The position numbers and the translations under genes are program-made. A model generated the notes under the pieces. The model saw only the letters and a list, made by a program, of their open reading frames with translations. It was not told the DNA's origin and made no database searches. 53,926 nt of DNA from Deltaproteobacteria bacterium (GTDB lineage Bacteria; Desulfobacterota; Dissulfuribacteria; Dissulfuribacterales; UBA3076), in assembly GCA_030262715.1 (NCBI GenBank), contig JAJSZR010000003.1, positions 1 through 53,926 of the forward strand, written 5' to 3'. Below, one piece after another: positions 12,875 through 45,498 of this stretch (positions are counted from its first letter, which is position 1; each line of letters begins with the position of its first letter).

Positions 12875-13174
12875 CTACTGATCTCTTTCCCGTTCGGTCT
12901 GGTCCGGAGTCACATCTATAATAAGTGAGCTTGCGTCCAGATCACTATTGGTATCACTACGCCTGGTACATTCTTTCTCAAACTGCCGCATGACCTTGCG
13001 AACACGCCATGCCATGTAGCTGGCTGCAATAGCAAAGACTACCACAGCGCCCAAAAACAGCGGCAGGGCCAGAAAAAAGGCGGCCACGGCAAGCAGTCCC
13101 AACCCCAATAGGGTCAGTGGAGAGACATTAGTGGATTTGTAGTATATTCTGCGTTGTGTCATTTTAGTCCTCAT
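12875..13174 (-). CDS. small membrane protein (two predicted TM helices)
   Basis: 99-aa ORF with the hydrophobic stretch 'LTLLGLGLLAVAAFFLALPLFLGAVVVFAIAASYMAW'. Its start overlaps the PilZ gene stop by 1 nt (TAATG). Confidence 0.4.
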   Translation of the reverse strand: MRTKMTQRRIYYKSTNVSPLTLLGLGLLAVAAFFLALPLFLGAVVVFAIAASYMAWRVRKVMRQFEKECTRRSDTNSDLDASSLIIDVTPDQTERERDQ

Positions 13175-13503
13175 TAGTTTTCGTTCAGGATATCCTTCAA
13201 TGAAAAAAATGAGTCGAGATCCATCTCCTCAAACCGGATTCCCATCCCGCTGTTATCCGTGCGAATTACACGTCCTTTAAAAAAGAGCACGAGCTTCGAA
13301 TTGGTATGTGTAAGATGTAATTCCATTTCACATGAAGTGCCGACAGAAAGCTTGATATCACTATAACAGTAAATTCCTTTCAAACTAATATCTTTTGTCT
13401 GATCGCAACGTATCTCCTTAGCATCCTGTTTAAGAGACCAAAGGCATGCCACGGCCTTGAAAGGGACCCGAAAATTTTTGCGTTGCTCATTATCTGCTAT
13501 CAT
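13174..13503 (-). CDS. PilZ domain protein (putative c-di-GMP receptor)
   Basis: It has both PilZ signature motifs: RxxxR ('RKNFR') and D/NxSxxG ('DISLKG'). Confidence 0.65.
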   Translation of the reverse strand: MIADNEQRKNFRVPFKAVACLWSLKQDAKEIRCDQTKDISLKGIYCYSDIKLSVGTSCEMELHLTHTNSKLVLFFKGRVIRTDNSGMGIRFEEMDLDSFFSLKDILNEN

Positions 13504-16323: not shown

Positions 16324-16344
16324 GTTAGCATAAGTAGCAACGTT

Positions 16345-16432
16345 TGAAAAAGGCAAACCATTCGAAAGAATGGAACGCAAAGGCACCGGCCTAAATCCTT
16401 GGGTTGCAGGATACGGCAGCGGGTCTGCCGGA
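16345..16432 (+). promoter_or_regulatory. c-di-GMP-I (GEMM-I) riboswitch aptamer
   Basis: The sequence is AAAAAGGCAAACC-ATTC-GAAA-GAAT-GGAACGCAAAGGCACCGGCCTAAATCC...GGCAGCGGGTCTGCCG. It contains the conserved GEMM-I blocks: GGCAAACC, a GNRA (GAAA) loop closing CCATTC/GAATGG, ACGCAAAG, CCGGCCTAAA and AGCGGG..GCCG. These are nearly collinear with the V. cholerae Vc2 aptamer as I recall it. Confidence 0.8.
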
Positions 16433-16437
16433 CGAAA

Positions 16438-17769: not shown

Positions 17770-19461
17770 ATGAATTTTACTAAATTTATGTATAGGACTC
17801 AAGTGCTAATATTGGCAACTTTGGCCATTTTTGTCATGGCCTCGGCAACTTGGGCAAAGACCTATTATGTAGATGCAACAAGGGGCAATGACAAAAAAAG
17901 CGGACAGTCATTATCGGCTGCCTGGAAAACCATAGCAAAGGTTAATGCCTCAAGTTTTAATCCTGGAGACCAGATTTTATTCAAAAGAGGGGAAATATGG
18001 CGGGAAACACTTATTGCGCCATCATGTGGCTCATCTGGCAATCCGATAACGTTTGGTGCTTATGGTAGTAATAATAATAAACCAATAATTTCAGGAGCAG
18101 ATGACCTTACTATAAGCAGCTATAAATGGGCGCCTTCAATTAAAGGCACTAATGAGTATTATCTTAAAAAGTCTTCCGGAGGTAATCCTGGTATAATCAA
18201 ACCTCTTCTGGTCTGGATGGACCAAGACTGTTTAACCAAAGGCAAAGTAGGTTCTCTTTCCGATCATCAGTGGGCTTGGGGAGACATTGATAGGCTTGGA
18301 TATAATACCGTTTATATCCGTGATGATTCCGGAAATCCTGATATTTCGGGAGTGCTAATCGAGGCGGGCAATAGGGACACCATTTTAGAAATTGGCGATA
18401 GATCTTATCTGAATTTTACGGACTTGGAATTGAGGCAATCAGATGCGATGTGGGGAGGAGTGATTCATATCTATGATAGTTATAATATAAGTTTTGAGAA
18501 TTGCATTATACATGATGGGCATTATGCTGTTTTTTATGCGTACCATAGTGATGCAGATCCTCCCAGCGGAATTACGATTGATTCAAGCATCATATACGGA
18601 TGCAGAAGGACTGATAGTCCTTATGGCGCAATTATTAAGTTAGATGGATGTAATAATACTATCATAAAAAATAGTAAGATTTATGAAAGCAACGATGCCA
18701 CTTTGGCAGATGCCATTTTTATATATAACTCAGATAACAATATAATAGAACATAATCACATATATGGTCCAGCAGGAAACCTTTTATACATAAAGGAAAA
18801 TTCTGATTTTAACATTGTCAGGTATAATAAATTCCATGATGGATACATGGGGATTCAAATAAGGGTTGGTTCGAATGATAATAAAGTTTTTTATAATGTA
18901 ATATATAATATGTATGGAGGACCAGCTATACAATCTGATGGCGATGTACCAATTCATGGGACTAAGATTTACAACAACATTATTTATACAACCGGGAACA
19001 ACCATAATGGGATTTCTATTCACAATACAAATACTAACTGCGAGGTCAAAAACAACTTAGTATATGTAGGAGAGTATTCTTTTGCTTTACATATTCATAA
19101 AAATAGCAGAAATGGGGTAATTAGTGATTATAATTTGCTGAGGAATGTATCTGGTGCCCTCATAACGTGGGCAGGTACCCCCTATACAATGTCTCAATTT
19201 TCGGATTATCAAAATACAGCCGGTCAGGATTCACATTCAAAAACTGATGATCCTAAATTTGTAAATTCTGAAAACCATGATTTTAAACTCCGGTCTACTT
19301 CTCCCTGTATCAATACTGGTACGTATATCGATCTTTCTGAGGATTTTGAAGGAACTTCAGTCCCCCAAGGAGGTAAGGTAGATATGGGGTCATTCGAATT
19401 CAAATATGTAGAAGGAATTATACCACCAAAAAATTTGCGAATTATTATGTCTTCATCATAA
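17770..19461 (+). CDS. secreted right-handed parallel beta-helix repeat protein (pectate-lyase fold; possible EPS lyase/epimerase/hydrolase)
   Basis: It has a signal peptide. 'KTYYVDATRGNDKKSGQSLSAAWKTIAKVN' is the typical beta-helix family opening. Repeated 'NN.I..N.I' coils run through aa 250-450. Confidence 0.75.
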   Translation: MNFTKFMYRTQVLILATLAIFVMASATWAKTYYVDATRGNDKKSGQSLSAAWKTIAKVNASSFNPGDQILFKRGEIWRETLIAPSCGSSGNPITFGAYGSNNNKPIISGADDLTISSYKWAPSIKGTNEYYLKKSSGGNPGIIKPLLVWMDQDCLTKGKVGSLSDHQWAWGDIDRLGYNTVYIRDDSGNPDISGVLIEAGNRDTILEIGDRSYLNFTDLELRQSDAMWGGVIHIYDSYNISFENCIIHDGHYAVFYAYHSDADPPSGITIDSSIIYGCRRTDSPYGAIIKLDGCNNTIIKNSKIYESNDATLADAIFIYNSDNNIIEHNHIYGPAGNLLYIKENSDFNIVRYNKFHDGYMGIQIRVGSNDNKVFYNVIYNMYGGPAIQSDGDVPIHGTKIYNNIIYTTGNNHNGISIHNTNTNCEVKNNLVYVGEYSFALHIHKNSRNGVISDYNLLRNVSGALITWAGTPYTMSQFSDYQNTAGQDSHSKTDDPKFVNSENHDFKLRSTSPCINTGTYIDLSEDFEGTSVPQGGKVDMGSFEFKYVEGIIPPKNLRIIMSSS

Positions 19462-22468: not shown

Positions 22469-23773
22469 CTATGTCCAACCCTGATCAACTATTTTTAAAT
22501 AGTGCCTTCGATCAAGCGCTACGAGATAGAAAAAATATAGAAGCATTACGGGGTCAATTTTACTGGCCAGAGTGATCTCCATAAAAGAATTGAGGAGAAT
22601 CATTGACACAATAGAAACTGCTCGAAGTGTGAATTCAGTTGAAAGATCTTTATGTAGTTGATTAAATTGTGTCAGCCACTTAATACTATAAATAACTAAC
22701 GCCAAAAATGTGACGATACCAAATAACCCAAGAGAAAAAAATATTTCGATAAAGCTGTTGTGGAGATGTGAAATATAGAAATCGGGTCCTCCAGATCCCT
22801 CGTTTAGAACCAACCTGCTAATGCCATAACCATGCCCAAAAAATAAAGAGGCAGGTTCATCAAACACCTTTCTAAAGGCATACGACCAAATTTCAGTACG
22901 TTTTGTTAGAGACATAATAGTATCAATATCCTGACCTCTATTAAAAATGTTAAATGCGGTGGTTGCTCCAGGCAGTTCAAGGGATAACGCTAAAATTGCG
23001 AAAACTACAGCAGCTACTACAAAGCACGGAATCGCTACCCATAGATTTAAATTTTCCCTTTGAATCCCCTGTTGGAACCAAAGCCGGATGACACCCCCAA
23101 AAGCGAAGCATACCATCGAGACACGACTCCCAGAAAGAGCTATAATAAATAGGAACAGAAGCCTGGGTAGCCACAAGAAAAAACTATGTTTTAATTCTTC
23201 TTTCTTAAATGATATCCAAAAAGCAAGGGCCGCCAAGAAACCCATTGTGTTTGCATGCGTAATACCCATGCCAAGTCTAAATGGTCCGCTAATATGATGT
23301 ATCTCTTGTATTTCCGGAAACAATAAAGCGGTTGCCGTATCTTTAAGTAGTAATAGACTAATTGTTAAAAGCCAGACATTTTCAATCTGGCTTAATGCCT
23401 TTTGTGTCTTTACTTGTTGGACAAGACCTATCGTCAACAAGCTAGCTCCAGCTAATAGAATCCAATATCCAAAGACGAGCTTAGTATATGGACTGAAGAC
23501 TGCTGACAGTAGAGATGCAACAACGTATAAAAGAAGTGCTTTTGTCCCAAATCCAAGATCAACATGCCTCCGCATCATTAAAATACCTAATATAGCAGCA
23601 ATGAGACACACAGAAATTTGTGCTGTTATCAACCAATCTACTTCAGGTGCACTCTCCCCAGAACGAATCCGGAAGTAAGTTCCGGTAAGAATCAGTATCC
23701 CAACCCAGGTACCAATCGAGAGTTTGCCAAGCAGACCATACCTGACATCACGATTAGATAATACATGATTCAT
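22469..23773 (-). CDS. O-antigen ligase / Wzy-like polymerase family membrane protein
   Basis: It is a polytopic membrane protein of about 10-12 TM helices. It has 'SGSRVSM' and the large-loop arrangement typical of Wzy_C family proteins. It overlaps the flippase gene stop. Confidence 0.65.
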   Translation of the reverse strand: MNHVLSNRDVRYGLLGKLSIGTWVGILILTGTYFRIRSGESAPEVDWLITAQISVCLIAAILGILMMRRHVDLGFGTKALLLYVVASLLSAVFSPYTKLVFGYWILLAGASLLTIGLVQQVKTQKALSQIENVWLLTISLLLLKDTATALLFPEIQEIHHISGPFRLGMGITHANTMGFLAALAFWISFKKEELKHSFFLWLPRLLFLFIIALSGSRVSMVCFAFGGVIRLWFQQGIQRENLNLWVAIPCFVVAAVVFAILALSLELPGATTAFNIFNRGQDIDTIMSLTKRTEIWSYAFRKVFDEPASLFFGHGYGISRLVLNEGSGGPDFYISHLHNSFIEIFFSLGLFGIVTFLALVIYSIKWLTQFNQLHKDLSTEFTLRAVSIVSMILLNSFMEITLASKIDPVMLLYFFYLVALDRRHYLKIVDQGWT

Positions 23774-25272
23774 GGTCTTACAGGCCCCCTAATTCTGTAT
23801 ATAATTTCTCTGATAGCAAACTTCTCAGTCTTGTCAAAAAAACTACTAAAGTAAAGAAAAACTACACTAAAACATGCAATTAAGGGAATTATACTGTAAA
23901 AAATATGTGCATATGTTTCACGTAAAAGGAAAACTAATAATAGGAATAAAACTAATAATATTCCAGAAATAACTAATCGCTTTCCTTCTAAGGGAATTGG
24001 AAAAGTTTTCATTCCTAGTATCAACAAAAGTACGGCCGTACACATAAGTGTTAAATTAAAAACCACAATTACACCGTACCTCCCATAGAGCGGAATCAGC
24101 AGGTAGTTTAATCCTACGCTTAATATGGTAAAGACAGTAACAATACTTCCCGTAACATACGTTTTCTTCTCAATATAGAGAAGAGACTCTCCAATATAGT
24201 ATATTCCTCTGAAGGCTATTCCAGGAAGTATCAGAAAAATGACTAGATAGGCAGAGAAATATTCCGGTGGCGCAATTATGGAAAGTAATTCCCGGGAAAC
24301 GAAAACAATAATAAGAGCCACAAACGCAAAACCAACCATAAGATAGGTCAATAATTTTGCAATAGTTAAGCGGATGCCCGGCGTATTAATATTAGCATAT
24401 ATAAAGGGCTCATAAGCCAATTGGAAGGGTAATATAAAAGCAACGATGGCTATCTGAGCTATCTTATAGCCAAGTGAGTATATTGCAACGTCCTCAAGGC
24501 TACCAAAATAACTCAAAAGGTACATAGCTGATGCATCTGTAATCAGATCACCTGACATTACAAAAACCAGTGGCAGGCTGAACCGAAGTAGTTTTGATAT
24601 CAACTGTATTGAAATTCCAACACCAATCTTTGAAAAGACATTAAGCGAAACAAGCAGCCATAAGCCACCATAGGTAATAATCTGAGCCATTAATGCACCT
24701 TTAACACCCTGATGGAGTATTAGAAGAAACACTAAGTTCATAAGGATTAAGAGCACCGGAGCTGATCCGCTAGCCAGCATGAACTTAAGGCCTTCATTTT
24801 TTGCTCGGTAATAGGCCAAAATATGAATACACAAGCACTGGCTCATAGCTGCACCACAGGTCAAAATAATATATTCGGAGACATGACCAGAATGCAGAAC
24901 AGCTTGGAAAAAAGGTATAAGAAATAAAATTGATACACCGCTTAATATCAAGCCCCCGACTATGTTTATCAAAACAGAACTGCCCAATAAATGTCCCATT
25001 AGATTCTTGGTCTCATACTCTGCAGCGAAACGCATAAATCCAGTTCGGGTTCCTAAGCCCATAAAAACGATCATGACCTGAATTGTCAGTAGCAATGTGA
25101 TCAGCAATCCATAGTCGCTTATAGAAAGAGAATATGTATAAAGTGGGATAAGCAAGAATGAAGCGGCCCTTAACCCGATACTCCCAATTACATAGATTAC
25201 AGCATTCTTTCCGAAAAGCTTGAGATTCATATAACTATACTGATACCGGGATTCTGCTGGATTGAAGCCCAA
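23770..25272 (-). CDS. oligosaccharide flippase (Wzx, MOP superfamily)
   Basis: It is a protein of about 12-14 TM helices with the typical N-terminus 'LKLFGKNAVIYVIGSIGLRAASFLLIPLYT'. The true start is probably the internal Met ('MNLKLFGKN'). Confidence 0.75.
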   Translation of the reverse strand: MGFNPAESRYQYSYMNLKLFGKNAVIYVIGSIGLRAASFLLIPLYTYSLSISDYGLLITLLLTIQVMIVFMGLGTRTGFMRFAAEYETKNLMGHLLGSSVLINIVGGLILSGVSILFLIPFFQAVLHSGHVSEYIILTCGAAMSQCLCIHILAYYRAKNEGLKFMLASGSAPVLLILMNLVFLLILHQGVKGALMAQIITYGGLWLLVSLNVFSKIGVGISIQLISKLLRFSLPLVFVMSGDLITDASAMYLLSYFGSLEDVAIYSLGYKIAQIAIVAFILPFQLAYEPFIYANINTPGIRLTIAKLLTYLMVGFAFVALIIVFVSRELLSIIAPPEYFSAYLVIFLILPGIAFRGIYYIGESLLYIEKKTYVTGSIVTVFTILSVGLNYLLIPLYGRYGVIVVFNLTLMCTAVLLLILGMKTFPIPLEGKRLVISGILLVLFLLLVFLLRETYAHIFYSIIPLIACFSVVFLYFSSFFDKTEKFAIREIIYRIRGPVRP

Positions 25273-31728: not shown

Positions 31729-32933
31729 TCAATATGCTCCTTTGGCTGAAAGGATAGCCAAAATTGTTTTAAAGAGGATTTTAAAGTCCAGCCACAACGA
31801 CCAATTATTGACATATGAGATATCTAAGCGGACCATTTCATTGAAGGTGGTTGAACTTCTTCCCATTACCTGCCACAGACCTGTAATGCCAGGTTTAACT
31901 TCCAGTATCCTTCTTAGATGCCAGTCCTCGTATTGTTTTACTTCATAGGGTATAGGAGGGCGTGGTCCCACTAAACTCATTTCTCCTTTTAATGCATTGA
32001 ACAGTTGAGGTAACTCATCGAGGCTGCTCCTCCTCAGGAATTTTCCAAAGGGAGTTACCCGGGGGTCATCTTTCATTTTATATAAAGGCTTATCCCTTGA
32101 GCTGCAATTAGCTTTATCATTTTTTTTTTGATTAAATCCTTGACATACTCTCTGTGTCTTTTTTCGTCGCAGTTGGCATACATTGAGCGAAACTTCAGGA
32201 AGGTGAATTCCTTGCCCAGAAATCCCATCCTTCTCTGTTTATAGAGAATTGGACCAGGAGAAGTTGATTTTATCAGAATGGCAATGATGAACATAAGGGG
32301 CAAAAAAAGAATAATTCCAATCAGAGAACCGATTATGTCAATGCCCCTTTTTATCGATTTCTGCAATTCATATAAAACGGGCTTCTTCGAAAGATCCAAA
32401 TAAAGTGGGCAAACTAAAGTCATTTGATCATGTGAATTAAATTCCGTGTTCAGAGCCCTTGTATTTTCCCTTTTATTTTCTGGTCTTGTTACTGAATTTC
32501 TAATAATTTCAGGATAGGACGTAATTATTATATTCTTTTTGAGGTCAAAGCTGTTTTTAATGCCAAAAGAGGTCTCTAAAGCATGGCTCACCATTTCCTC
32601 AAGCTTCCCAGCCAGGACATCTGCCCCTGATTTTTCAGTCCCAGGCATGAGAATTTTCAAGGTTTTATGGTCATGCCAGCTTTTGATGTCAATATCACGG
32701 GTACTTTCTCGGACGATGTTAGTTATTACCTTTTTTATTTGATGGATGTTGAACTCTGTCCCATTTTGAAGCGAATCTGTCAAATCCGAAATATCAAGAA
32801 TTAATATTGAAAACGGTGAACCCGACCGTTCGGTTCTATGTCGCTCCTCACATAGACGTATGTCGAAGAATGACGGGCTGTAGAAGCCGGTCTTCATGTC
32901 CACCCTGTAGTTTCTGGATTTAGAGTTTAACAT
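31729..32933 (-). pseudogene. priming polyprenyl-phosphate sugar-phosphate transferase (Bac_transf family) with N-terminal degenerate GGDEF domain; split by a frameshift at an A10 tract
   Basis: ORF 32073..32933 ends inside the catalytic domain ('...FTFLKFRSMYANCDEKRHREYVKDLIKKK'). ORF 31729..32076 carries the rest ('KDDPRVTPFGKFLRRSSLDELPQLFN...LVGPRP'). The downstream frame is open back through the homopolymer and reads 'NDKANCSSRDKPLYKMKDDPRVT'. One extra A in the tract would give a single ORF. Confidence 0.8.
32120..32129. repeat. T10 (A10 on the coding strand) homopolymer at the frameshift site
   Basis: Read directly: 'atcaTTTTTTTTTTgatt'. Confidence 0.9.
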
Positions 32934-32996: not shown

Positions 32997-34943
32997 TTAT
33001 TGTATGATTGCATAAACATCATCAAACCAGGCAGTACCCATAGTGTAAGAGAGGAAGCAGTAAGGATGTATCTGTTTTACACCTTTACCAAAGTTGACTT
33101 TACTTTCTATATTTTCCCAATCATGGGTTCCCGGCCTGAACAGAAGATCATCGTAGTACCAGGTTGAATTTCCATCCTCAAACTCTATATAGAAAAGTAT
33201 GGCAAATATGCCGCCTGGAGCTACATCTTCTGTCCTGGCCCAGCCCCCAAGCGTTAAGGTATGAGGATAAGGCTCAGGGAAGGTAACAATCTCCCCATTC
33301 CAGGCGGCATTGTCACCAGTGGTATTTTCAATCTTAATTGAGTAATTCCCACTGTGTGCCACTCCTTTTATCCAACCACTCTCCCGGTCCAAATCATTTC
33401 CATAAGTTTGCCAATACACTGGATAGGTTTCCCCATATTCCATGCCGGGATTATAGATAAGGCTGTCATACATATCTCGAGGTTTGGAATTGGGGTCACC
33501 TGGATCTGTGTGACTATTATATTCTTCGATATTCGTATATCCATCCCCATCCAAATCCTCTACGGCATCATTAACAAGGGGATTCAGGCCATATTTGACC
33601 TCCCATCCATCGGGCATACCATCATAGTCGGTATCAGGGTTATCGGGGTCTGTTCCTATAGCTTGTTCCTCCTCATCATGTAAGCCATCACCATCTCTAT
33701 CACCTTCTAAAGTGGCATAAACATCATCAAACCAGGCAGTACCCATAGTGTAAGAGAGGAAGCAGTAAGGCTGTATCTGTTTCACAGCCTTATCAAAGGT
33801 AACTTTACTTTCCATATTCTCCCAGCCATGGGTTCCCGGCCTGGACAGAAGATCATCGCAGTACCAGGTATGGTTTCCATCCTCAAACTTTACATAGAAG
33901 TCTATGGCAAAGATGCCACCTTCAGCTACATCTTCTGCCTTGGCCCAGCCCCCAAGCGTTAAGGTATAGGGATAAGGCTCAGGGAAGACAACTGTTCCTC
34001 CACACCACTGGGCATCGGTACCAGTGGTATTTTCAATCCTGATTGAATAATTGCCACTGTGTGCCACCCCTTTTATCCAATCAGTTTCTCTATCCAGATC
34101 GGCGCTGTAAGTCCACCAGGACTGTGGATAGGTTTCCCCATATTCCATGCCGGGATTATAGATAAGGCTGTCATACATATCTCGAGGTTTGGAATTGGGG
34201 TCACCTGGATCTGTGTGACTATTATATTCTTCGATATTCGTATATCCATCCCCATCCAAATCCTCTACGGCATCATTAACAAGGGGATTCAGGCCATATT
34301 TGACCTCCCATCCATCGGGCATACCATCATAGTCGGTATCAGGGTTATCGGGGTCTGTTCCTATAGCTTGTTCCTCCTCATCATGTAAGCCATCACCATC
34401 TCTATCACCTTCTAAAGTGGCATAAACATCATCAAACCAGGCAGTACCCATAGTGTAAGAGAGGAAGCAGTAAGGCTGTATCTGTTTCACAGCCTTATCA
34501 AAGGTAACTTTACTTTCCATATTCTCCCAGCCATGGGTTCCCGGCCTGGACAGAAGATCATCGCAGTACCAGGTATGGTTTCCATCCTCAAACTTTACAT
34601 AGAAGTCTATGGCAAAGATGCCACCTTCAGCTACATCTTCTGCCTTGGCCCAGCCCCCAAGCGTTAAGGTATAGGGATAAGGCTCAGGGAAGACAACTGT
34701 TCCTCCACACCACTGGGCATCGGTACCAGTGGTATTTTCAATCCTGATTGAATAATTGCCACTGTGTGCCACCCCTTTTATCCAATCAGTTTCTCTATCC
34801 AGATCGGCGCTGTAAGTCCACCAGGACTGTGGATAGGTTTCCCCATATTCCATGCCGGGATTATAGATAAGGTTATCAGCCCGGCCTGACGATGGAAATG
34901 CAATGAATAAAATAAACAGTATAGTTAGTAACAAATTTGTCAT
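32997..34943 (-). CDS. secreted protein with three CBM-like (CBM4_9-type) beta-sandwich modules joined by thrombospondin-type-3-like Ca-binding linkers
   Basis: It has a signal peptide ('LLLTILFILFIAFPSSGRA'). There are three units that each start 'LIYNPGMEYGETYP...W' and end '...GTAWFDDVYA'. The linkers read 'GDRDGDGLHDEEEQAIGTDPDNPDTDYDGMPDGWEVKYGLNPL...DLDGDGYTNIEEY'. Confidence 0.7.
   Translation of the reverse strand: MTNLLLTILFILFIAFPSSGRADNLIYNPGMEYGETYPQSWWTYSADLDRETDWIKGVAHSGNYSIRIENTTGTDAQWCGGTVVFPEPYPYTLTLGGWAKAEDVAEGGIFAIDFYVKFEDGNHTWYCDDLLSRPGTHGWENMESKVTFDKAVKQIQPYCFLSYTMGTAWFDDVYATLEGDRDGDGLHDEEEQAIGTDPDNPDTDYDGMPDGWEVKYGLNPLVNDAVEDLDGDGYTNIEEYNSHTDPGDPNSKPRDMYDSLIYNPGMEYGETYPQSWWTYSADLDRETDWIKGVAHSGNYSIRIENTTGTDAQWCGGTVVFPEPYPYTLTLGGWAKAEDVAEGGIFAIDFYVKFEDGNHTWYCDDLLSRPGTHGWENMESKVTFDKAVKQIQPYCFLSYTMGTAWFDDVYATLEGDRDGDGLHDEEEQAIGTDPDNPDTDYDGMPDGWEVKYGLNPLVNDAVEDLDGDGYTNIEEYNSHTDPGDPNSKPRDMYDSLIYNPGMEYGETYPVYWQTYGNDLDRESGWIKGVAHSGNYSIKIENTTGDNAAWNGEIVTFPEPYPHTLTLGGWARTEDVAPGGIFAILFYIEFEDGNSTWYYDDLLFRPGTHDWENIESKVNFGKGVKQIHPYCFLSYTMGTAWFDDVYAIIQ
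33421..34872. repeat. tandem direct repeat, 705-bp unit, about 2.06 copies, identical where compared; a third, diverged partial unit lies at 32997-33420
   Basis: 33421-34167 reads the same as 34126-34872 in every stretch I compared. The shadow ORFs 33354..33683 and 34059..34388 are offset by exactly 705 nt. 705 nt = 235 codons, so the reading frame is preserved. Confidence 0.9.
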
Positions 34944-37384: not shown

Positions 37385-38812
37385 TTAGTGCAAAGGTTTG
37401 AATTCCGGTATTGATGCCAGTAGCGGCATATCCAGTTTTTCCTCAAAATCAGTTCCGGTTGTAAAGGAGTGATCCATGAATTCTGAAAAGAAAGCCAGGC
37501 CCAAACTACCTGCTGTACCCAGGATGATAGCTAGGATGATATTCAGCAACTTCTTGGGCTTAACCGGCTTGAGTGGCACCAAGGCTGCCTGGATGACACT
37601 CACATTGGCTATTTTTTCCATATCCATGGTATCTGATATGCGGCTTTCCTCAAGCTTGGTAAGATAAAGCTGATAATTCTTCTCGTCTGTATCGCGCTGG
37701 CGCTTAAAGCGCCTGAGTTGTACCTCAAGGTCATTGAGTTTATTGAGTTCTTTTTGATATCCAGCCAGATGAGTCCTCTGGCTCGCTTCTCTGATCTTTA
37801 GGTCTTTAAGGTCTGCCTGATAGATTTTTAACTCCTCTTTTGCCAAGGTTTTCTTTACCTTGCCAATCTCCATACGCTTATTTTGCACTGTTCGGCTTTG
37901 TTCTCTATATTTGGTGAGGAATTGCTGCTCAGTGCTTTGTAGTTCGATCAGTTTTTCCCTTAAAGAAGCGATGACTTGGGGATTGCGGTCCATTTCCATG
38001 CCAATGGTAATCTCCAGCGGATTTCCAGCAAGCTGTGTTTTGATCTCATTGATTTTGTTTTGAGTTTCATGGATCTGCCTTTGGGTTTTTTCAAGAGCTG
38101 CCTGAAGTTCTGATATTTGCTCCAAGATAAGTGTTTTTTGTTGATCTAAGGAACTAATGCGGTGCTTGTCTTTAAATTTCTCTAGGGCCTTTTCTGAGCT
38201 TTTCAGCTTTTTTTCTGCAAGGGTAACCTGCTCTTTAAAGAACCCATATCCTCCCTGATTCTTGTGAACCTCTAAATGCCGATCTAGATAAAAGTTGACC
38301 AGGGTGTTAACCACATTGGCTGCTATATAAGGGTCATGGTGTTGAAATTTGACATGGATAACATCGGATTTTTTTACTGCTTCAATTTTAAGTTTTTTTT
38401 GGGCCTTAAGCACTGCTTTATCAAAAGGAGTGAGCGTCTCCTTTTTATGACCTGATTTGCTCTTTTTAAACAGCTTTGGATAAATAGTTTTAACTCCCAA
38501 GGCCTTGACAGTTTTTTCAATGAGATTTCGGCTTTTCAAGATCTCGATTTCGGAGTTTATTTCTTCCTGGCGATTGAGGTTCACTATAGGACTGACATGT
38601 TCAGTGGCAGGGATATAGATGTTTTCACGGCCAGACTTGATCAGGATATTGGAGCTTGCTTCATAGGTGGGCTTGATTATAAATGAGGCTACTGTCACTG
38701 TGATCACTGTGCTCAAAAATACAGTAAGGATTTTTGTCTTGTGTTTAAAGACCACGTATAAAAAATCCCTCAGTGATGTGGCTTTATTGCTTTCAGCCAT
38801 AGAGCCCTCCAT
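37385..38812 (-). CDS. polysaccharide chain-length determinant (Wzz/GumC-type polysaccharide co-polymerase)
   Basis: It has an N-terminal TM helix, then 'YEASSNILIK', a long coiled-coil periplasmic region, and a C-terminal TM helix ('LLNIILAIILGTAGSLGLAFF'). Confidence 0.75.
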   Translation of the reverse strand: MEGSMAESNKATSLRDFLYVVFKHKTKILTVFLSTVITVTVASFIIKPTYEASSNILIKSGRENIYIPATEHVSPIVNLNRQEEINSEIEILKSRNLIEKTVKALGVKTIYPKLFKKSKSGHKKETLTPFDKAVLKAQKKLKIEAVKKSDVIHVKFQHHDPYIAANVVNTLVNFYLDRHLEVHKNQGGYGFFKEQVTLAEKKLKSSEKALEKFKDKHRISSLDQQKTLILEQISELQAALEKTQRQIHETQNKINEIKTQLAGNPLEITIGMEMDRNPQVIASLREKLIELQSTEQQFLTKYREQSRTVQNKRMEIGKVKKTLAKEELKIYQADLKDLKIREASQRTHLAGYQKELNKLNDLEVQLRRFKRQRDTDEKNYQLYLTKLEESRISDTMDMEKIANVSVIQAALVPLKPVKPKKLLNIILAIILGTAGSLGLAFFSEFMDHSFTTGTDFEEKLDMPLLASIPEFKPLH

Positions 38813-38824
38813 GGAAATTAAAGA

Positions 38825-39583
38825 TTAATAAGAACCCCAATAATAGCCTACGTTGAAGGGAATAGGAATCATGTTTCGGACATATTTCCTTACCCATTCA
38901 TTGACGTTATCAATTTTAGACTTTGGTATATAAACGATATCAAAGGGCTGAAGACTGATATCCTTCTCCTGGCCTGCCAGCAATCTCTCTAAATTGATTT
39001 TGTATGGAACCGGTTCGTAATCGGACCCTCGATGAATAACTATGATTTCCGTCTTTTTGGCACTTCTTGTTAAACCCCCGGCATCGATTATGGATTGCAT
39101 TACGGTTAGTTCACCTGTTAAAGTGAGGGTCTTTGGAAATTTGACTTCACCTCCCACATAAACTTTTTGTCCACCAAAGGACCGGACAATAACTGCAACC
39201 TCAGGATTTTTTAGCTCTTCTCCATATCTCTCTGTAATTATTTTGTCTAGCTCAGCCGGTGTAAGTCCGGCTATTTTCATTTCCTCCACCAGTTGTAAGG
39301 ATATCTTTCCATCAGGGCGAATGGTCACTGTCTCATTCAGCTCCGGGTCATAAAAGAATTTTATGTCTATTTGATCTCCAGGCTGTAAGTAGTAATTACG
39401 TTCCGGGCTACTTATTATCTGGATCTGTGAAGATTCATCTGGCTTAATGACTGGTGCATTTAAGGCGCAACCCAGTATATTAGCTGCCAACAATGCAAAG
39501 ATTACAAAAATCATAGGAATCTTATTTGCGACAAAAACCTCTTTAAAAGATACCTGAAGCGTCATTATCTCATACCCTTTCAA
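38825..39583 (-). CDS. polysaccharide export lipoprotein (Wza-like: Poly_export + SLBB domains)
   Basis: The lipobox is 'LLAANILGC'. 'YYLQPGDQIDIKFFYDPELNETVTIRPDGKISL' is the Poly_export motif. The ORF-track start at 39583 is a TTG. The ATG at 39565 ('MTLQVSF...') is a more likely start. Confidence 0.8.
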   Translation of the reverse strand: MKGYEIMTLQVSFKEVFVANKIPMIFVIFALLAANILGCALNAPVIKPDESSQIQIISSPERNYYLQPGDQIDIKFFYDPELNETVTIRPDGKISLQLVEEMKIAGLTPAELDKIITERYGEELKNPEVAVIVRSFGGQKVYVGGEVKFPKTLTLTGELTVMQSIIDAGGLTRSAKKTEIIVIHRGSDYEPVPYKINLERLLAGQEKDISLQPFDIVYIPKSKIDNVNEWVRKYVRNMIPIPFNVGYYWGSY

Positions 39584-41406: not shown

Positions 41407-42138
41407 TTAAACCTTGGATGGTTGCTGACTCGAATTGCCACCCTGCTTAATAACAAATTCAGCCAGTCTTAGATCAAACTCAGTATCAATGTTTGCCATG
41501 ATTTTATTGATTAAAATAAATGATGTCTTATCACCTTTGATGCTTTTTTTATTGATGATACAATCCCGGGTAATGGCGTATGCCACGCCGTTTTTGTGGT
41601 ACACCGGCGTAAGCTGCTGTCTGGCAATTATGTTCGCTCCGGCTGGGTCATAATAATCCAGGTTGTCCTTTCGAATTACAAGCTGTTTCAGGGGATGCGC
41701 CTTGGCGTCTGTCTCGCTGACGGTCCATACGGCATCAAAACCCCCTTTGGTGAGTTTCTCTATGGATGCCGTCACATGGTCTGGTTGACGCAAGGGAGAA
41801 GTCGGCTGCAGCATTACTATGACATCATACTGTCTTCCATCGATTTGTTCGCATTCCAGCAAGGCATGATTGAGCACCTCCCAGTCACCCACAAAATCCC
41901 CAGACAAAGCATTTGGCCGCATAAAGGGCACGTCCAGGCCGTTTTCCTTTGCTATTTGAGCTATTTTTTCATGATCCGTCGAAACGACCGCCCTGTCCAC
42001 ATACGGTAACTGTTTTACCACACGTCCGACAAGGGCAACGAGGGGAACACCGTTCAGTTTGCGGATGTTTTTCAGTTTCATGCCCTTGCTCCCACCGCGT
42101 GCGGGTACTACCACCAGTATGGTCTTGCTTTCAAGCAC
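41407..42138 (-). CDS. neuA: acylneuraminate (nonulosonic acid) cytidylyltransferase, CMP-sugar synthetase
   Basis: 'ILVVVPARGGSKGMKLKNIRKLNGVPLV', 'VSTD' and 'VMLQPTSPLR' are canonical CTP_transf_3 blocks. Confidence 0.85.
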   Translation of the reverse strand: MLESKTILVVVPARGGSKGMKLKNIRKLNGVPLVALVGRVVKQLPYVDRAVVSTDHEKIAQIAKENGLDVPFMRPNALSGDFVGDWEVLNHALLECEQIDGRQYDVIVMLQPTSPLRQPDHVTASIEKLTKGGFDAVWTVSETDAKAHPLKQLVIRKDNLDYYDPAGANIIARQQLTPVYHKNGVAYAITRDCIINKKSIKGDKTSFILINKIMANIDTEFDLRLAEFVIKQGGNSSQQPSKV

Positions 42139-42191
42139 TGATTATCCTTTTGTCTAATTTGATATACTGTGACTGCCAAAGAAACCTGGCC

Positions 42192-42800
42192 TCACAGACC
42201 ATCCATGCCATTCCCGAGATCCTCGAATCGAAACTGTTCGTTAACAAAGAGAAAAGGGCATCCGTTTTTCATCGCTGATTCTCTATCGGATTCCCCATCT
42301 CCCACGACAAGCACCTGAGCGCTTTTCAACCCTTCTAATGCAATGATACGCCGGAGTGTCTCATGCTTTTCATTCGGCCACCCAAACACCCCGCGAAAAT
42401 AATTATCCCACCTTTTGAATCTAATGATCTCTTTCAGACTGGTGTCCGGTGTAGTGGAACTTACGTATAGTCCATATGCCGGCGAAAATTTTCTGAGCGC
42501 CTCTTCCGCTCCTGCCTTCTCCGGGCAGGTTTTTGCCCCTGCCACAACAATTTCGTTGTAAAACCCGGCCAGCTCTTTGACTTTTTCCCTTAAAAGCGCA
42601 TCTTTCCTGTAACCAAGTCTCAGAAGAATCTCTTTCAGGATGACGTAACGACTTTGTTCAAATATTTCAGAAAGGACCACACGAATGATTGTGGCATGGC
42701 GGTCATCTGCGGGGAACAGTTTAAAATAGGCATCGTATTTTAACTGGTTTGAGTCAATAAGTGTTCCGTCAAAGTCAAAGACAATTACTTGTATTCCCAC
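42192..42800 (-). CDS. HAD-superfamily phosphatase
   Basis: HAD motif I is 'VIVFDFDGTLIDS', motif II is 'VSST' and motif IV is 'VGDGESD'. Confidence 0.75.
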   Translation of the reverse strand: MGIQVIVFDFDGTLIDSNQLKYDAYFKLFPADDRHATIIRVVLSEIFEQSRYVILKEILLRLGYRKDALLREKVKELAGFYNEIVVAGAKTCPEKAGAEEALRKFSPAYGLYVSSTTPDTSLKEIIRFKRWDNYFRGVFGWPNEKHETLRRIIALEGLKSAQVLVVGDGESDRESAMKNGCPFLFVNEQFRFEDLGNGMDGL

Positions 42801-42836
42801 ACAACCCTCATTATGAAACGTAGCTAAAAACTCACA

Positions 42837-44405
42837 TCAGGATGCCTGCTTTTCAATTACATTCCAGTTGGAGATGACTGTTTTCCTCGCCTCCCTGGGG
42901 AGTCTTGCTATCCTATCATCCTCATAGAAAGAGTCATTATCAAAGTGGGTTGTGCTCACTTCCTCAAAAATTGCGCCATCAAGGGTATGGAATTTATGCC
43001 ATTCACCAGGTTTTACTAGAATAGTATCCCCTATCTGCGGTTTGATCCTTTTTCCGTCCAGCTCTACCTCCAAATCCCCATATAGCAACTGGAATGTTTC
43101 TTCCTTTTTCTTATGAAAATGATAGGGATGTTTCTGTCTGGGGAGTTGGATGATTAGTTTTTTGCAATACTTGCGGTTGATACAGTTCATGATGACCGCT
43201 CCGAATTCCCTGAACCGCTCAAGACCATAGTGGTGGGACAACTCAATGGAGCTGTCTTTTCCGATATGTATCCTCGCCTTGTGGAGCATCCCTTTTACCT
43301 GAAGCATGATGCGGTAAATTATCTCTTCCGGGGGCAATGCAGTGTTGGCAACAGCCATATTTACAGGCTCGTGCGGAGAATAATCCTTGTCAGCCTCAAT
43401 CCCATCAAACCAGTCGCCACTTGTAAGCTGGCCGTCACTGAGCGGCATTGCAAAATAGACCTTGTCCCTGTTAAGCTTATCACCCTTTTTGATCTCCTTT
43501 TTTGCGAATACCCCCCGCATGAGTGAGCGTAAAGAGGCAATCTCTTCAGGAGAGGCAGGGCTGCGATGCTTTCCGCCACAGGCCGCCACGGCCTGTTTGT
43601 GCGCCTCAATCCATCGCGCGATTTGCTCAGGTCTGGAGGAATATCTGTTTAACTTATGTTCTTCTGTCTCCATTCCTACGTGCCTTTCGAACAGCCTCGC
43701 GCCCTTTCCGTAAGCAATTTGAATGGCCGCATAGTTGTCAGGTTCCTCATGGGTGGAGAACCCTATGGGCACGTCCGGGAATCGCTCTTTCAGCACGTCG
43801 ATCTGATTCAGTCTCAGCTTGTCGTTCGGTGTGGGATAGATGGCCACACAATGCATCAAGGCAAAGTGCATATTTCTTGATTCGAGGAAACTCACCAGCC
43901 TGTCTATCTTGTCCATGCTCAACCCTGCCGTTGAGACAATGACGGGTTTGTTCACCTGGGTAATCCGTTCAATAAGGGGCCTGTCGCTTGCGGAACAACT
44001 GGCCACCTTGATAATTTCAATACCCAGATCAAGGATAACGTCCACGGATTCTTCGTCGAACGGGGTACATATGGTATGCATCCTATTCTTAGTGACGGCC
44101 TTAGTAAGTGTCTCGTATTGCTGTGCGGTCAAGGCCGTTTCCATGAATCTCGGGATATGTTTTACATCCTTTCTCTGTTTGTAATCCAGATGAATAAAGG
44201 TATCCAATTGCCTGAATTGGAACTTGAGAGCGGCACGGACGCCGGCCTTTCTGGTTACATTACCCATTGCATTAATGATGTTGAGGGCATGATTCATATC
44301 GCCCTGGTGGTTGTTGGCAAGATCGAGAATAAACAGATCGTTAAAATCAAAGTTGTGCATAAAATTTACCTCGTTTCCAGACAGGCGCTTATTAGGATAT
44401 CTCAA
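42837..44405 (-). CDS. NeuB-family nonulosonic acid (sialic-acid-type) synthase with SAF domain and an extra C-terminal cupin domain
   Basis: The NeuB TIM-barrel opening is 'LFILDLANNHQGDMNHA'. It also has 'IKVASCSASD' and 'GFSTHE'. The SAF-like segment is 'VFAKKEIKKGDKLNRDKVYF'. The C-terminal cupin is 'HPYHFHKKKEETFQLLYGDLEVELDGK...GDTILVKPGEWHKFHT'. The probable true start is the internal Met at 44360 ('MHNFDFNDLFIL'). Confidence 0.8.
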   Translation of the reverse strand: MRYPNKRLSGNEVNFMHNFDFNDLFILDLANNHQGDMNHALNIINAMGNVTRKAGVRAALKFQFRQLDTFIHLDYKQRKDVKHIPRFMETALTAQQYETLTKAVTKNRMHTICTPFDEESVDVILDLGIEIIKVASCSASDRPLIERITQVNKPVIVSTAGLSMDKIDRLVSFLESRNMHFALMHCVAIYPTPNDKLRLNQIDVLKERFPDVPIGFSTHEEPDNYAAIQIAYGKGARLFERHVGMETEEHKLNRYSSRPEQIARWIEAHKQAVAACGGKHRSPASPEEIASLRSLMRGVFAKKEIKKGDKLNRDKVYFAMPLSDGQLTSGDWFDGIEADKDYSPHEPVNMAVANTALPPEEIIYRIMLQVKGMLHKARIHIGKDSSIELSHHYGLERFREFGAVIMNCINRKYCKKLIIQLPRQKHPYHFHKKKEETFQLLYGDLEVELDGKRIKPQIGDTILVKPGEWHKFHTLDGAIFEEVSTTHFDNDSFYEDDRIARLPREARKTVISNWNVIEKQAS

Positions 44406-45498
44406 AGGCCTCGGGTCCGTATCCCCTATCGTACTTGATCCTCACGGTTCTCTTGTGTCGATGAGAGACATGGGCGGCAGCTATAACCAGCATGGTCTCA
44501 AGCCCTCTCTCAAGCGATATGGGAGCGTCCTCTGGATCCCCCCCGTTCAGGATAGCTTCAATAAAGTCTATCTCTCCTTTGAAGTCGTCGGGACGCGTTT
44601 TTTGAATCGTTTCCTCTATAACCTCTCCTTTTCCATCCCGGTAACACACGGCATCATGTCCGCCATCAAGATTGACAAACCATTCAAGAAAACCGTTGGA
44701 GCCTTGAATTCGCACCTTTTTTTGCGGGGGCTCAGTAACCACATCCTGGGCGATATCTCCCACGAGACCAGCCTGGGTCTTGACATTCAGCAGACAAATC
44801 CGGTCATATTTAACAATACCATCTGTCACCATATCCATTGTGGAGGATACCTCAACGATCCTTCCGGCGTTAACAAGATGGGCAAACCGCTGCCAGATGT
44901 TTATGGCATGAGAATGTTCCCCACTAGCTCCACCTCCACGTTCAGAAAAACCGAGGTAGGTGTCCTTGGGACCGCTCAGCCATGGATGGGCGGTGAAAAT
45001 ACCGCCCCAATGTTCCCTGAAACAGGCGCTGATAGTGATGGGATCGCCAATCGTGTTTTTTGCAAGAATCCGGGCCGCGCGCCTGGAATTCTCGGTCAGG
45101 GTATGGTTATAACCGACTGCAACGAATGTTCCGGTGGCCTTTTTAAGGTCGACAATCCTCTGGACCTCCTCGAGAGAGGGCGTGCACAAAGGCTTCTCAA
45201 TAAGCAATACTTTCGGTGGGTTGTTTTCCAACACCCTGGTTGCCATACTAATATGGGTGTCTGGAGGGGTGCCTATGATGACCATGTCAAAACCCTCATC
45301 TGAGCCAGTATTTGCCCCTGAAAGGCGTATGTCCGGATCCCAGCGTCCGTAGCGGGACGGATATATGTCCTCGCGTGTTCGTTTCAGTGCATCAGGGTCG
45401 ATGTCACATATAAGAACATCCCACCCCTTGGTACGGCAGGCATGTGCCAAATGGTTGCCGATAGAACCGGCGCCGTAGATTTTTACGCTGTACATCAT
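44392..45498 (-). CDS. NAD(P)-binding Rossmann-fold oxidoreductase (Gfo/Idh/MocA-like)
   Basis: It has the N-terminal 'VKIYGAGSIGNHLAHA' dinucleotide-binding motif and 'LLIEKPL'. Confidence 0.65.
   Translation of the reverse strand: MMYSVKIYGAGSIGNHLAHACRTKGWDVLICDIDPDALKRTREDIYPSRYGRWDPDIRLSGANTGSDEGFDMVIIGTPPDTHISMATRVLENNPPKVLLIEKPLCTPSLEEVQRIVDLKKATGTFVAVGYNHTLTENSRRAARILAKNTIGDPITISACFREHWGGIFTAHPWLSGPKDTYLGFSERGGGASGEHSHAINIWQRFAHLVNAGRIVEVSSTMDMVTDGIVKYDRICLLNVKTQAGLVGDIAQDVVTEPPQKKVRIQGSNGFLEWFVNLDGGHDAVCYRDGKGEVIEETIQKTRPDDFKGEIDFIEAILNGGDPEDAPISLERGLETMLVIAAAHVSHRHKRTVRIKYDRGYGPEAFEIS

Follow-up and report, generated by a model that had tools for sequence, protein, structure and literature searches.

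The gene described here lies on a 53,926-nt stretch of contig JAJSZR010000003.1 (assembly GCA_030262715.1) from a Deltaproteobacteria bacterium (Dissulfuribacterales; UBA3076); the whole of this stretch is called the window below. The gene encodes a phosphoglycosyl transferase (PGT) within an exopolysaccharide (EPS) cluster, preceded by a degenerate GGDEF domain. Our preferred reading, to which we give slightly better than even chances, is that the enzyme is the priming PGT of a Wzx/Wzy pathway, that its N-terminal domain is a receptor for cyclic dimeric guanosine monophosphate (c-di-GMP) of the inhibitory-site (I-site) type, and that a fixed -1 frameshift at a run of ten adenines (A10) gives rise to two isoforms. 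The two halves of the split gene carry the labels 'diguanylate cyclase' and 'sugar transferase', and both of these automatic names are misleading.

The first half, open reading frame 1 (ORF1; 32073..32933, minus strand, 286 amino acids (aa)), begins with MLNSKSRNYRVDMKTGFYSPSFF..., and its residues 1-178 correspond to positions 32400-32933, the region to which an earlier note on this DNA had drawn attention. Read in frame 0 it comprises a GGDEF-like domain, a disordered linker, a membrane helix, the first third of a Bac_transf domain and a 15-aa out-of-frame tail, MIKLIAAQGISLYIK, closed by a stop codon at 32073-32075. The rest of the Bac_transf domain is encoded by the continuation in the -1 frame (31729..32121, minus strand), which ends with the stop at 31729-31731. 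Within this frame gene prediction places a separate ORF2 of 115 aa (32076..31729).

A GGDEF domain that has lost its active site and kept its I-site

The N-terminal domain (aa 10-143; 32505..32906, minus strand) is a genuine, catalytically dead GGDEF domain, truncated at its C-terminus. The earlier note had recognised a GGDEF domain in the N-terminal ~130 aa from two peptides, both of which could be located (aa 12-51, DMKTGFYSPSFF...ILDISDL, and aa 79-99, RDIDIKSWHDHKTLKILMPGT), and Pfam, profile searches of the PDB, structure prediction and Foldseek now bear it out. As a single sequence the protein matched PF00990 over aa 11-141 (profile positions 3-133 of 161) with an E-value of 9e-5 and 22.7 bits, and in the PDB it matched GGDEF chains only, WspR among them, albeit weakly (E 1.5e-3 to 6e-2). 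Profiles were more sensitive. One built from 21 close relatives (A1) reached an E-value of 1.5e-8 against the PDB, and all of its matches at E <= 0.05 were GGDEF domains. A second one, from 19 diverse relatives (A3; 27-84% identical to the window's domain, 27-53% outside the window clade and the stand-alone subgroup), reached 3.9e-15, with GcbC, DgcR, WspR and PleD as matches and again nothing but GGDEF chains at E <= 0.05. When 1.84 billion representative proteins were searched, profile A1 gave 13,805 matches at E <= 0.001; the best 150 of these were mostly multi-domain proteins, and about 100 of the matched stretches had a canonical GG[DE]EF motif.

The AlphaFold2 model of aa 11-140 had block means of the predicted local distance difference test (pLDDT) mostly between 84 and 95, with dips to 64 (aa 51-60) and 73 (aa 121-130), and when it was compared with the PDB by Foldseek the top 50 structures were all GGDEF domains. 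The fold ends after beta4; the last helix and strand, i.e. roughly 28 positions of the Pfam model (134-161), are absent. The truncated domain is followed by a low-complexity linker of about 45 residues (aa 144-190; 32364..32504, minus strand), which is predicted to be disordered, varies in length and connects the sensor domain to the membrane helix.

Both the sequence and the alignment with WspR indicate that the active site is lost. DHKTL (32658..32672, minus strand) stands in the slot of the GG(D/E)EF motif of active cyclases; in the family the five motif columns are highly variable and the two glycines are gone. The ligands of substrate and metal have disappeared as well, since the sequence reads LDISDLTDSLQNG...NIHQIKK instead of DIDxFKxxND...GHxxGD. 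Only D47, the first Asp, persists, and it is kept in 86% of the fused homologues.

The RxxD motif of the I-site, in contrast, is intact (R79 D80 I81 D82, encoded by CGT GAT ATT GAC; 32688..32699, minus strand). It is located five residues before DHKTL, so that both the spacing and the replacement of the GGEEF motif given in the earlier note were correct, and it is conserved in the orthologues; such an arrangement marks the functional class of degenerate-GGDEF I-site receptors (PelD, PssE, YdaK and PopA). In the A3 alignment the only invariant columns are E30, R79, D82 and K84, and F23, R33, R36, W86 and T99 are nearly so. In a further set of 108 fused homologues (43-65% identity) R79 and D82 were present in 107 of the 107 that could be aligned and ranked as the most conserved positions, and R33/R36 were found in 100-101 of them. 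Against the A3 profile an RxxD mutant of DgcR scored 12 bits lower than the wild type.

Other residues expected around an I-site are also present. K110 in helix alpha3 (32604..32606, minus strand) aligns with the Lys/Arg position beside the I-site (AEKVR in WspR), which we take to correspond to R390 of PleD; across the family 73% of the sequences have K in this column, 21% have N and 5% have R. Helix alpha1 carries R33-T-E-R36 (32826..32837, minus strand). R79, D82 and R36 align with R242, D245 and R198 of WspR. In WspR a second GGDEF domain supplies R198 to the c-di-GMP dimer bound at the I-site, and the mutants R242A and R198A purify essentially free of c-di-GMP (PMC2270323).

What needs explaining is the strict retention of the I-site after the active site had decayed. 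Judged from sequence, this is the pattern that marks I-site c-di-GMP receptors of the PelD type, and we infer that the domain binds the dinucleotide. The comparison with PelD made in the earlier note thus holds in so far as a dead GGDEF domain has kept RxxD as the most conserved feature of its family, and it does not extend to family membership. Membership in the PelD family was considered and rejected: the PelD_GGDEF model PF16963 gave only E 0.25 and 11.7 bits against a cut-off of 27, and there was no PelD chain among the profile matches in the PDB. The nearest relatives of the sensor domain in sequence are I-site-bearing cyclases of the WspR/GcbC/DgcR type.

Several observations weigh against a receptor function. 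The 22.7 bits of the single sequence fall just under the PF00990 gathering score of 23.8, although several homologues clear it, and the last helix and strand of a canonical GGDEF domain are missing. Instead of Arg, the alpha3 position has Lys in the window protein and Asn in 21% of the homologues. RxxD, R33 and R36 also occur in more than 90% of the canonical cyclases retrieved by the profile, so the I-site residues of the sensor are ancestral and come from an I-site-type cyclase.

The same conservation might be read differently. The domain could be a relic of the GGDEF fold that does not bind c-di-GMP and serves the PGT as a module for dimerisation or for the docking of proteins, in a role comparable to that of the extra domains of large monotopic PGTs or of EpsW, and the conserved R, D, K and W residues would then form an interface. 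We consider this improbable. It would suit the family-invariant K84 and W86, which have no counterpart in cyclases (0% in the canonical matches), as well as the C-terminal truncation and the stand-alone relatives of L008, which lie beside a Ser/Thr kinase and an FHA protein and not beside c-di-GMP genes; control of a PGT through protein contact also has a precedent in EpsW-EpsZ (PMC12802240). However, the invariant residues are exactly R79, D82 and R36, the ones that contact c-di-GMP in the cyclases, while the surroundings of the former active site have drifted, and one stand-alone member is co-operonic with an active cyclase (see below). It also counts against a mere relic that RxxD is dispensable for the GGDEF fold; many active cyclases lack it.

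A frameshift within the transferase domain

The catalytic domain of the PGT is divided between two frames. Positions 1-67 of the Bac_transf profile match ORF1 at aa 195-261 and positions 70-178 match ORF2 (E 1.7e-45). The N-terminal membrane helix of a monotopic PGT is found in ORF1 as the hydrophobic segment GIDIIGSLIGIILFLPLMFIIAILIK (aa 197-222; 32268..32345, minus strand). The Asp-Glu pair (D306-E307; 32014..32019, minus strand) of the SLDELPQ motif, the catalytic dyad of PglC-type monotopic PGTs, is encoded in the -1 frame only and is invariant in our alignment A4. In other words, no single uninterrupted frame encodes the enzyme, and a complete PF02397/TIGR03025 catalytic domain with its Asp-Glu pair exists solely in the -1 recoded product. 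This product of 401 aa scored 303.8 bits against TIGR03025 (cut-off 295.55). Because only the C-terminal 200 positions of that model are covered, the protein is a small monotopic PGT with a sensor extension.

A search with the recoded full-length sequence retrieved more than 100 clusters of intact fusions with lengths of 395-430 aa, many of them labelled 'glycosyltransferase/GGDEF domain-containing protein' by the JGI pipeline. In the model of one intact homologue (P0201) the sensor domain is followed by a disordered linker, a long membrane helix (pLDDT about 90) and the PGT domain. In the sample searched for the signature R..D[ILV]K.[WH], two architectures only were seen: 18 proteins were fused to a PGT and 46 were small stand-alone proteins. 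The earlier note was right about a degenerate GGDEF domain N-terminal to Bac_transf. It had, however, described a plain fusion to the priming transferase, and here the gene is split by a -1 frameshift at A10, so that a contiguous sensor-enzyme protein exists only after recoding.

The split lies at an A10 run (T10 on the plus strand) at 32120..32129 (minus strand), where the coding strand reads ATC AAA AAA AAA A|TG. In frame 0 this continues as ATC AAA AAA AAA ATG ATA ... TGA, and the -1 frame is open from gene position 696. A -1 slip, or a single A added to the mRNA, gives ...DLIKKKNDKANCSSRDKPLYKM... (DLIKKKNDKANCSSRDKPLYKMKDDPRVT), which is colinear with, and equal in length to, the intact homologues P0025 (DFINNKNETPHSSSRNGQLYKMQDDSRIT) and P0201. 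In the model of P0201 the site falls into a low-pLDDT, disordered surface loop of the PGT domain, just past a helix. Since the DNA of the intact orthologue reads ATC AAC AAC AAA AAT GAA at this place, the frameshifted clade has turned the site into an A run that is one base short. A shift site further downstream was considered and dismissed: from the first residue after KKK the -1 frame matches the intact homologues at equal length (NDKANCSSR versus NETPHSSSR), and no slippery heptamer occurs further downstream.

The A10 run and the same split were present in all 11 distinct related contigs that were recovered besides the window, i.e. in 12 of 12. These contigs stem from JGI, MEGAHIT k141 and Logan assemblies of about ten sequencing samples and represent four sequence variants with 92-94% nucleotide identity. 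Comparison of the window with the L001 lineage gave 18 synonymous and 7 non-synonymous substitutions in the ORF2 frame, which corresponds to a ratio of non-synonymous to synonymous rates (dN/dS) of 0.09 (binomial p 1e-7). Overall the ratio in this frame ranged from 0.09 to 0.15, whereas values above 1 were obtained when this DNA was read in either of the other frames. Because the A10 run recurs and dN/dS in ORF2 is about 0.1, the frameshift is neither an assembly error nor a sign of a decaying pseudogene.

It is nevertheless worth considering what each of these two explanations would entail. If the frameshift were a homopolymer artefact of sequencing or assembly, the true gene would have A11. 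Homopolymers are error-prone, and the contig_N members of the family (L019 and L022-L024) do show multiple spurious frameshifts; still, A10 was found in 12 contigs from different studies and in four sequence variants, and no other gene nearby in the window is disrupted, which leaves this explanation hardly credible. Alternatively the gene might be broken, either as a pseudogene or as two separate polypeptides that reassemble into a split enzyme. Gene callers do annotate two ORFs (292 + 115 aa), and ORF2 opens with an ATG (MKDDPRVT). Yet this ATG is an ancestral internal Met (YKM in the intact homologues) before which no Shine-Dalgarno-like sequence was seen at a normal distance, and the split lies inside a catalytic domain. 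The dN/dS of 0.09-0.15 that built up in the ORF2 frame after the frameshift arose excludes a decaying pseudogene. A broken gene is thus very unlikely, though it is less far-fetched than an artefact.

In the contig_N records (L019, L022, L023 and L024; ENA ERZ250395xx) the gene calls are broken or fragmented. Of these, L019 was inspected as DNA and has two frame changes within about 100 nt. All four were taken for long-read-style indel artefacts of assembly and were not counted as further cases of recoding.

How, then, would the full-length enzyme be made? Runs of nine or more A/T bases are prone to slippage and are counter-selected in coding DNA (PMC1088944). The A10 run is the only A/T homopolymer of at least 9 bases in the 54-kb window, and no second all-AAA Lys triplet was seen among 26 long ORFs sampled. 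Two elements expected of programmed slippage are found, namely a slippery homopolymer that is kept in 12 of 12 contigs and all four variants, and a downstream frame that is under purifying selection and colinear with unshifted homologues. The best reading of these sequence data is that transcriptional slippage or -1 frameshifting at A10 would yield a truncated sensor-anchor isoform together with the full enzyme. A precedent is tssM1, where an A11 run leads to about 20% transcriptional frameshifting and both isoforms are required (PMC4256274).

Three points speak against recoding. A stimulatory RNA structure after the A run was not found in the 80 nt downstream in three lineages (folding z-scores of +0.43, -0.69 and -0.49), and no helix was common to the three. 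That three AAA codons have been kept at this degree of divergence is, by our estimate, not significant alone, and the evidence for recoding is entirely comparative. The first of these points also bears on the mechanism. A downstream RNA structure is needed for efficient ribosomal -1 frameshifting and not for transcriptional slippage; as none follows A10, transcriptional slippage fits better than structure-stimulated ribosomal frameshifting. The sequence A_AAA_AAA is itself a shifty heptamer.

A further alternative is that the run varies at the level of DNA, with A10 as the OFF and A11 as the ON state, interconverted by slipped-strand mispairing, and that neither RNA polymerase nor ribosome is involved. 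Most of the cells sampled would then be EPS-OFF, and ORF2 would be exposed to selection in the minority of cells that are ON. Capsule and lipopolysaccharide genes with homopolymer tracts are classic contingency loci, and the in-frame ancestral sequence corresponds to A11. During replication, too, long A/T runs are hypermutable (PMC1088944). Nonetheless, A10 was found in 12 of 12 contigs and neither A11 nor A8 was encountered, although the metagenome scan accepted runs of 7-13 bases. All four diverged variants share the OFF length, and strong purifying selection on ORF2 would be hard to sustain in a gene that is almost always off. Assemblies represent a consensus only, so that minority A11 genomes are possible; on the whole, however, we doubt that phase variation accounts for the run and favour recoding of the mRNA or its translation.

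The truncated isoform itself may be under constraint. In the first 27 nt past A10 (32093-32119) four substitutions separate the window from L001, and none of them alters the frame-0 protein, while every one changes an amino acid in the -1 frame, a pattern with a chance probability of about 0.01. This suggests that the tail of the short product (MIKLIAAQG) may be maintained.

Seven nt upstream of the A run the minus strand reads AAGGAT (32134-32139), which includes a Shine-Dalgarno-like AAGGA. It is kept in all four frameshifted variants, and the intact orthologue has ACT GAT instead. In dnaX an internal Shine-Dalgarno sequence at similar spacing reportedly stimulates -1 frameshifting. AAGGA may also be merely the coding sequence of Lys-Asp.

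A second lineage, L021, shows a comparable arrangement (L021:7001-8142). Here the frame shifts by -1 at a run of nine adenines (A9; L021:7440-7448), which lies in the stretch that links the GGDEF-like domain to the PGT; from this run on, an open -1 frame joins the sensor ORF to the PGT ORF. The sensor domain is about 30% identical to that of the window, and the gene order is syntenic: Wza, Wzz, an ATPase, a weakly AAA_31-like protein, the sensor ORF, a PGT of 203 aa, an oxidoreductase and acetyltransferases. The -1 product of 381 aa is colinear with the homologue P0193, which is fused in frame, and the 162-aa 'stand-alone' sensor encoded in frame 0 was found as the exact product on four contigs from three sources. 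In L021 it would depend on recoding whether the sensor is made as a free protein or attached to the enzyme. Poly-A recoding thus appears to have arisen twice in one protein family, at different positions.

The exopolysaccharide locus and its c-di-GMP context

The locus in the window is a Wzx/Wzy-type EPS cluster. It starts with Wza (38825-39583) and Wzz (37385-38812), continues with an ExeA-like ATPase with a SPOR domain, an ATPase resembling bacterial tyrosine kinases (BY-kinases), a TSP3-repeat protein and the PGT, and after the PGT comprises an oxidoreductase, an acetyltransferase and an aminotransferase, followed by Wzx (23770-25272), Wzy (22469-23773), a GT2 glycosyltransferase and a polysaccharide deacetylase. 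The order Wza-Wzz-ATPase-...-[sensor/PGT]-WbpB/D/E-like is conserved, and the closest intact orthologue, P0025, sits in the same WbpB/WbpD/WbpE-like neighbourhood. Such neighbours point to UDP-2,3-diacetamido sugars as candidate substrates of the PGT.

The gene directly upstream of the PGT gene (32997-34943, minus strand) encodes the TSP3-repeat protein of 648 aa. It consists of three repeats of ~235 aa separated by bacterial TSP3 calcium-binding repeats, and copies one and two have the same amino-acid sequence from end to end. The orthologue in L001 and L006 has 412 aa, which means that the copy number of the repeat varies between lineages. Upstream of the EPS export genes, at 41407-45498 (minus strand), lie genes for a NeuB-like synthase-cupin fusion, a HAD phosphatase, a cytidylyltransferase for sugars activated by cytidine monophosphate (CMP) and a GFO/IDH/MocA oxidoreductase. 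Their presence suggests a nonulosonic-acid or related CMP-sugar branch that feeds the same polymer.

The earlier note had referred to a riboswitch and a nearby PilZ gene and had concluded that c-di-GMP acts on this locus at several levels. Both elements are real. The c-di-GMP-I riboswitch (16343..16433, plus strand) matches its model over the full length with 68.4 bits, and the stand-alone PilZ gene (13174..13503, minus strand) encodes a protein of 109 aa with a PF07238 match (E 1e-11) and the motifs RKNFR and DISLKG. They are, however, 16-19 kb away from the PGT gene; the riboswitch does not precede the EPS operon, and the PGT gene itself is not a target of either element. The riboswitch precedes a weakly fn3-like gene (16493-17704) and the gene of a right-handed beta-helix protein (17770-19461). 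Both are secreted-protein genes that converge on the end of the EPS cluster, and their products are possibly involved in the matrix or in glycan processing. The PilZ gene adjoins a small membrane-protein ORF (12875-13174). Neither a paralogue of the sensor nor an active GGDEF cyclase was found elsewhere in the window.

One stand-alone relative is associated with a cyclase. P0180, from a metagenome-assembled genome (MAG) of Chitinivibrionales (L020:7001-8423, on a 182-kb contig), is encoded 8 nt upstream of a cyclase of 313 aa whose domain is intact (DIDNFKEIND, RYGGDEF, REPD). From its sequence the pair looks like a candidate cyclase-receptor operon. The riboswitch, the PilZ gene and this cyclase-adjacent member fit a matrix regulon controlled by c-di-GMP.

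Other stand-alone proteins of ~186 aa (L007:8001-8549, L008:1224-1772 and L012:501-950) are 57-67% identical to the sensor domain of the window. They have kept RxxD; their start is near-canonical (DMKTGFYNRRFF), HDDTTL stands at the motif position, and the tail at the end is basic (KPMASSPVRWANKKINRSNKK...). A 23S_rRNA_IVP gene comes before them in L007 and L008, and the one in L008 precedes the genes of a Ser/Thr kinase and an FHA protein. One protein of this group, P0017, is filed under 'Candidatus Aenigmarchaeota', where we suspect a binning error. The only locus that profile A1 found in the genome collection encodes a stand-alone member and belongs to an uncultured Syntrophobacterales MAG; in these collections the sensor family is therefore essentially metagenomic.

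Proposed mechanism and relation to known systems

A possible mechanism is as follows. An intercalated c-di-GMP dimer would bind to R79 and D82, with K110 alongside, and R33/R36 of a second sensor copy would complete the I-site, by analogy with PleD and WspR. In this way two PGT molecules might be paired, or an autoinhibitory contact released, at the cytoplasmic face of the membrane, and priming would be switched. The direction of the switch is probably 'on', because high c-di-GMP normally promotes matrix production. Standard decoding would yield the 286-aa isoform of sensor and membrane anchor without the catalytic Asp-Glu pair, while slippage of RNA polymerase (A10 to A11 in the mRNA) and/or ribosomal -1 slippage on A_AAA_AAA would yield the active enzyme of 401 aa. 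Slippage at A10 would then fix the ratio of the sensor-anchor isoform to the full enzyme.

A close functional parallel to the proposed receptor is PelD of the Pseudomonas aeruginosa Pel system, whose degenerate GGDEF domain has lost its cyclase activity, senses c-di-GMP through RxxD and switches on polysaccharide production post-translationally. PelD differs in that it belongs to a synthase-dependent system; it is a membrane protein in its own right, contains a GAF domain and is not fused to a catalytic enzyme. YdaK of Bacillus subtilis and PssE of Listeria monocytogenes are degenerate-GGDEF I-site receptors encoded in EPS operons, and they activate polysaccharide synthesis. They, too, are separate proteins, which act on processive glycosyltransferases and are not PGT-fused domains. 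In sequence and structure the sensor is closest to the cyclases WspR, PleD, DgcR and GcbC, with which it has RxxD, the alpha1 arginines and the alpha3 Lys/Arg in common. In these cyclases the residues bind c-di-GMP as an intercalated dimer and cross-link one GGDEF domain to another (PMC2270323). They are active enzymes, however, whose I-site serves product inhibition, whereas in the family described here the catalytic motif is gone, the fold is truncated and the output is a transferase.

Post-translational control by c-di-GMP is well documented for synthase-dependent systems, namely cellulose, alginate and Pel. Post-translational control of Wzx/Wzy pathways is incompletely understood; control of the priming PGT has been shown only recently, and what has been described so far, EpsW-EpsZ of Myxococcus xanthus and CapB1-CapM of Staphylococcus aureus, depends on phosphorylation-based partners (PMC12802240). 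These systems resemble our proposal in that their direct target is the PGT that initiates a Wzx/Wzy pathway, and EpsW is proposed to promote an active dimer (PMC12802240). They differ in that the input is phosphorylation, through a response regulator or a tyrosine kinase in trans, and no second-messenger sensor is fused to the enzyme. The logic of PelD, YdaK and PssE would here be applied to a new target, the priming PGT of the Wzx/Wzy pathway.

With regard to the frameshift, tssM1 of Citrobacter rodentium is similar in that a poly-A run interrupts the gene of a membrane protein, slippage of RNA polymerase gives a truncated and a full-length isoform, and the two forms as well as their ratio matter (PMC4256274). 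The product of tssM1 is a protein of the type VI secretion system, and in the PGT gene the requirement for slippage is deduced from comparative data.

We found no description of a GGDEF-PGT fusion in the literature; as coverage was incomplete, this is absence of evidence only, and the architecture itself is already visible in automatic annotations. It is tempting to go further and to see in this family the first case of c-di-GMP acting directly on a Wzx/Wzy priming PGT, with an I-site-only GGDEF domain that dimerises the enzyme once an intercalated c-di-GMP dimer is bound, and with poly-A slippage that, in at least two lineages (A10 in the PGT domain of the window, A9 in the linker of L021), deliberately yields a membrane-anchored or free sensor as main product and the fusion as minor one. 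In that case the sensor-only isoform would either set a threshold for c-di-GMP or pair with the full-length enzyme. We advance this extended version tentatively and regard it as rather doubtful.

With its more than 100 sequence clusters this large uncharacterised family is a testable candidate for gating by a second messenger of the first committed step of the pathway, the one that consumes undecaprenyl phosphate. The conserved A10 frameshift is, moreover, a candidate for recoding in a biosynthetic gene that is cellular and not mobile, where such candidates are rare, and the family holds a second, independent one.

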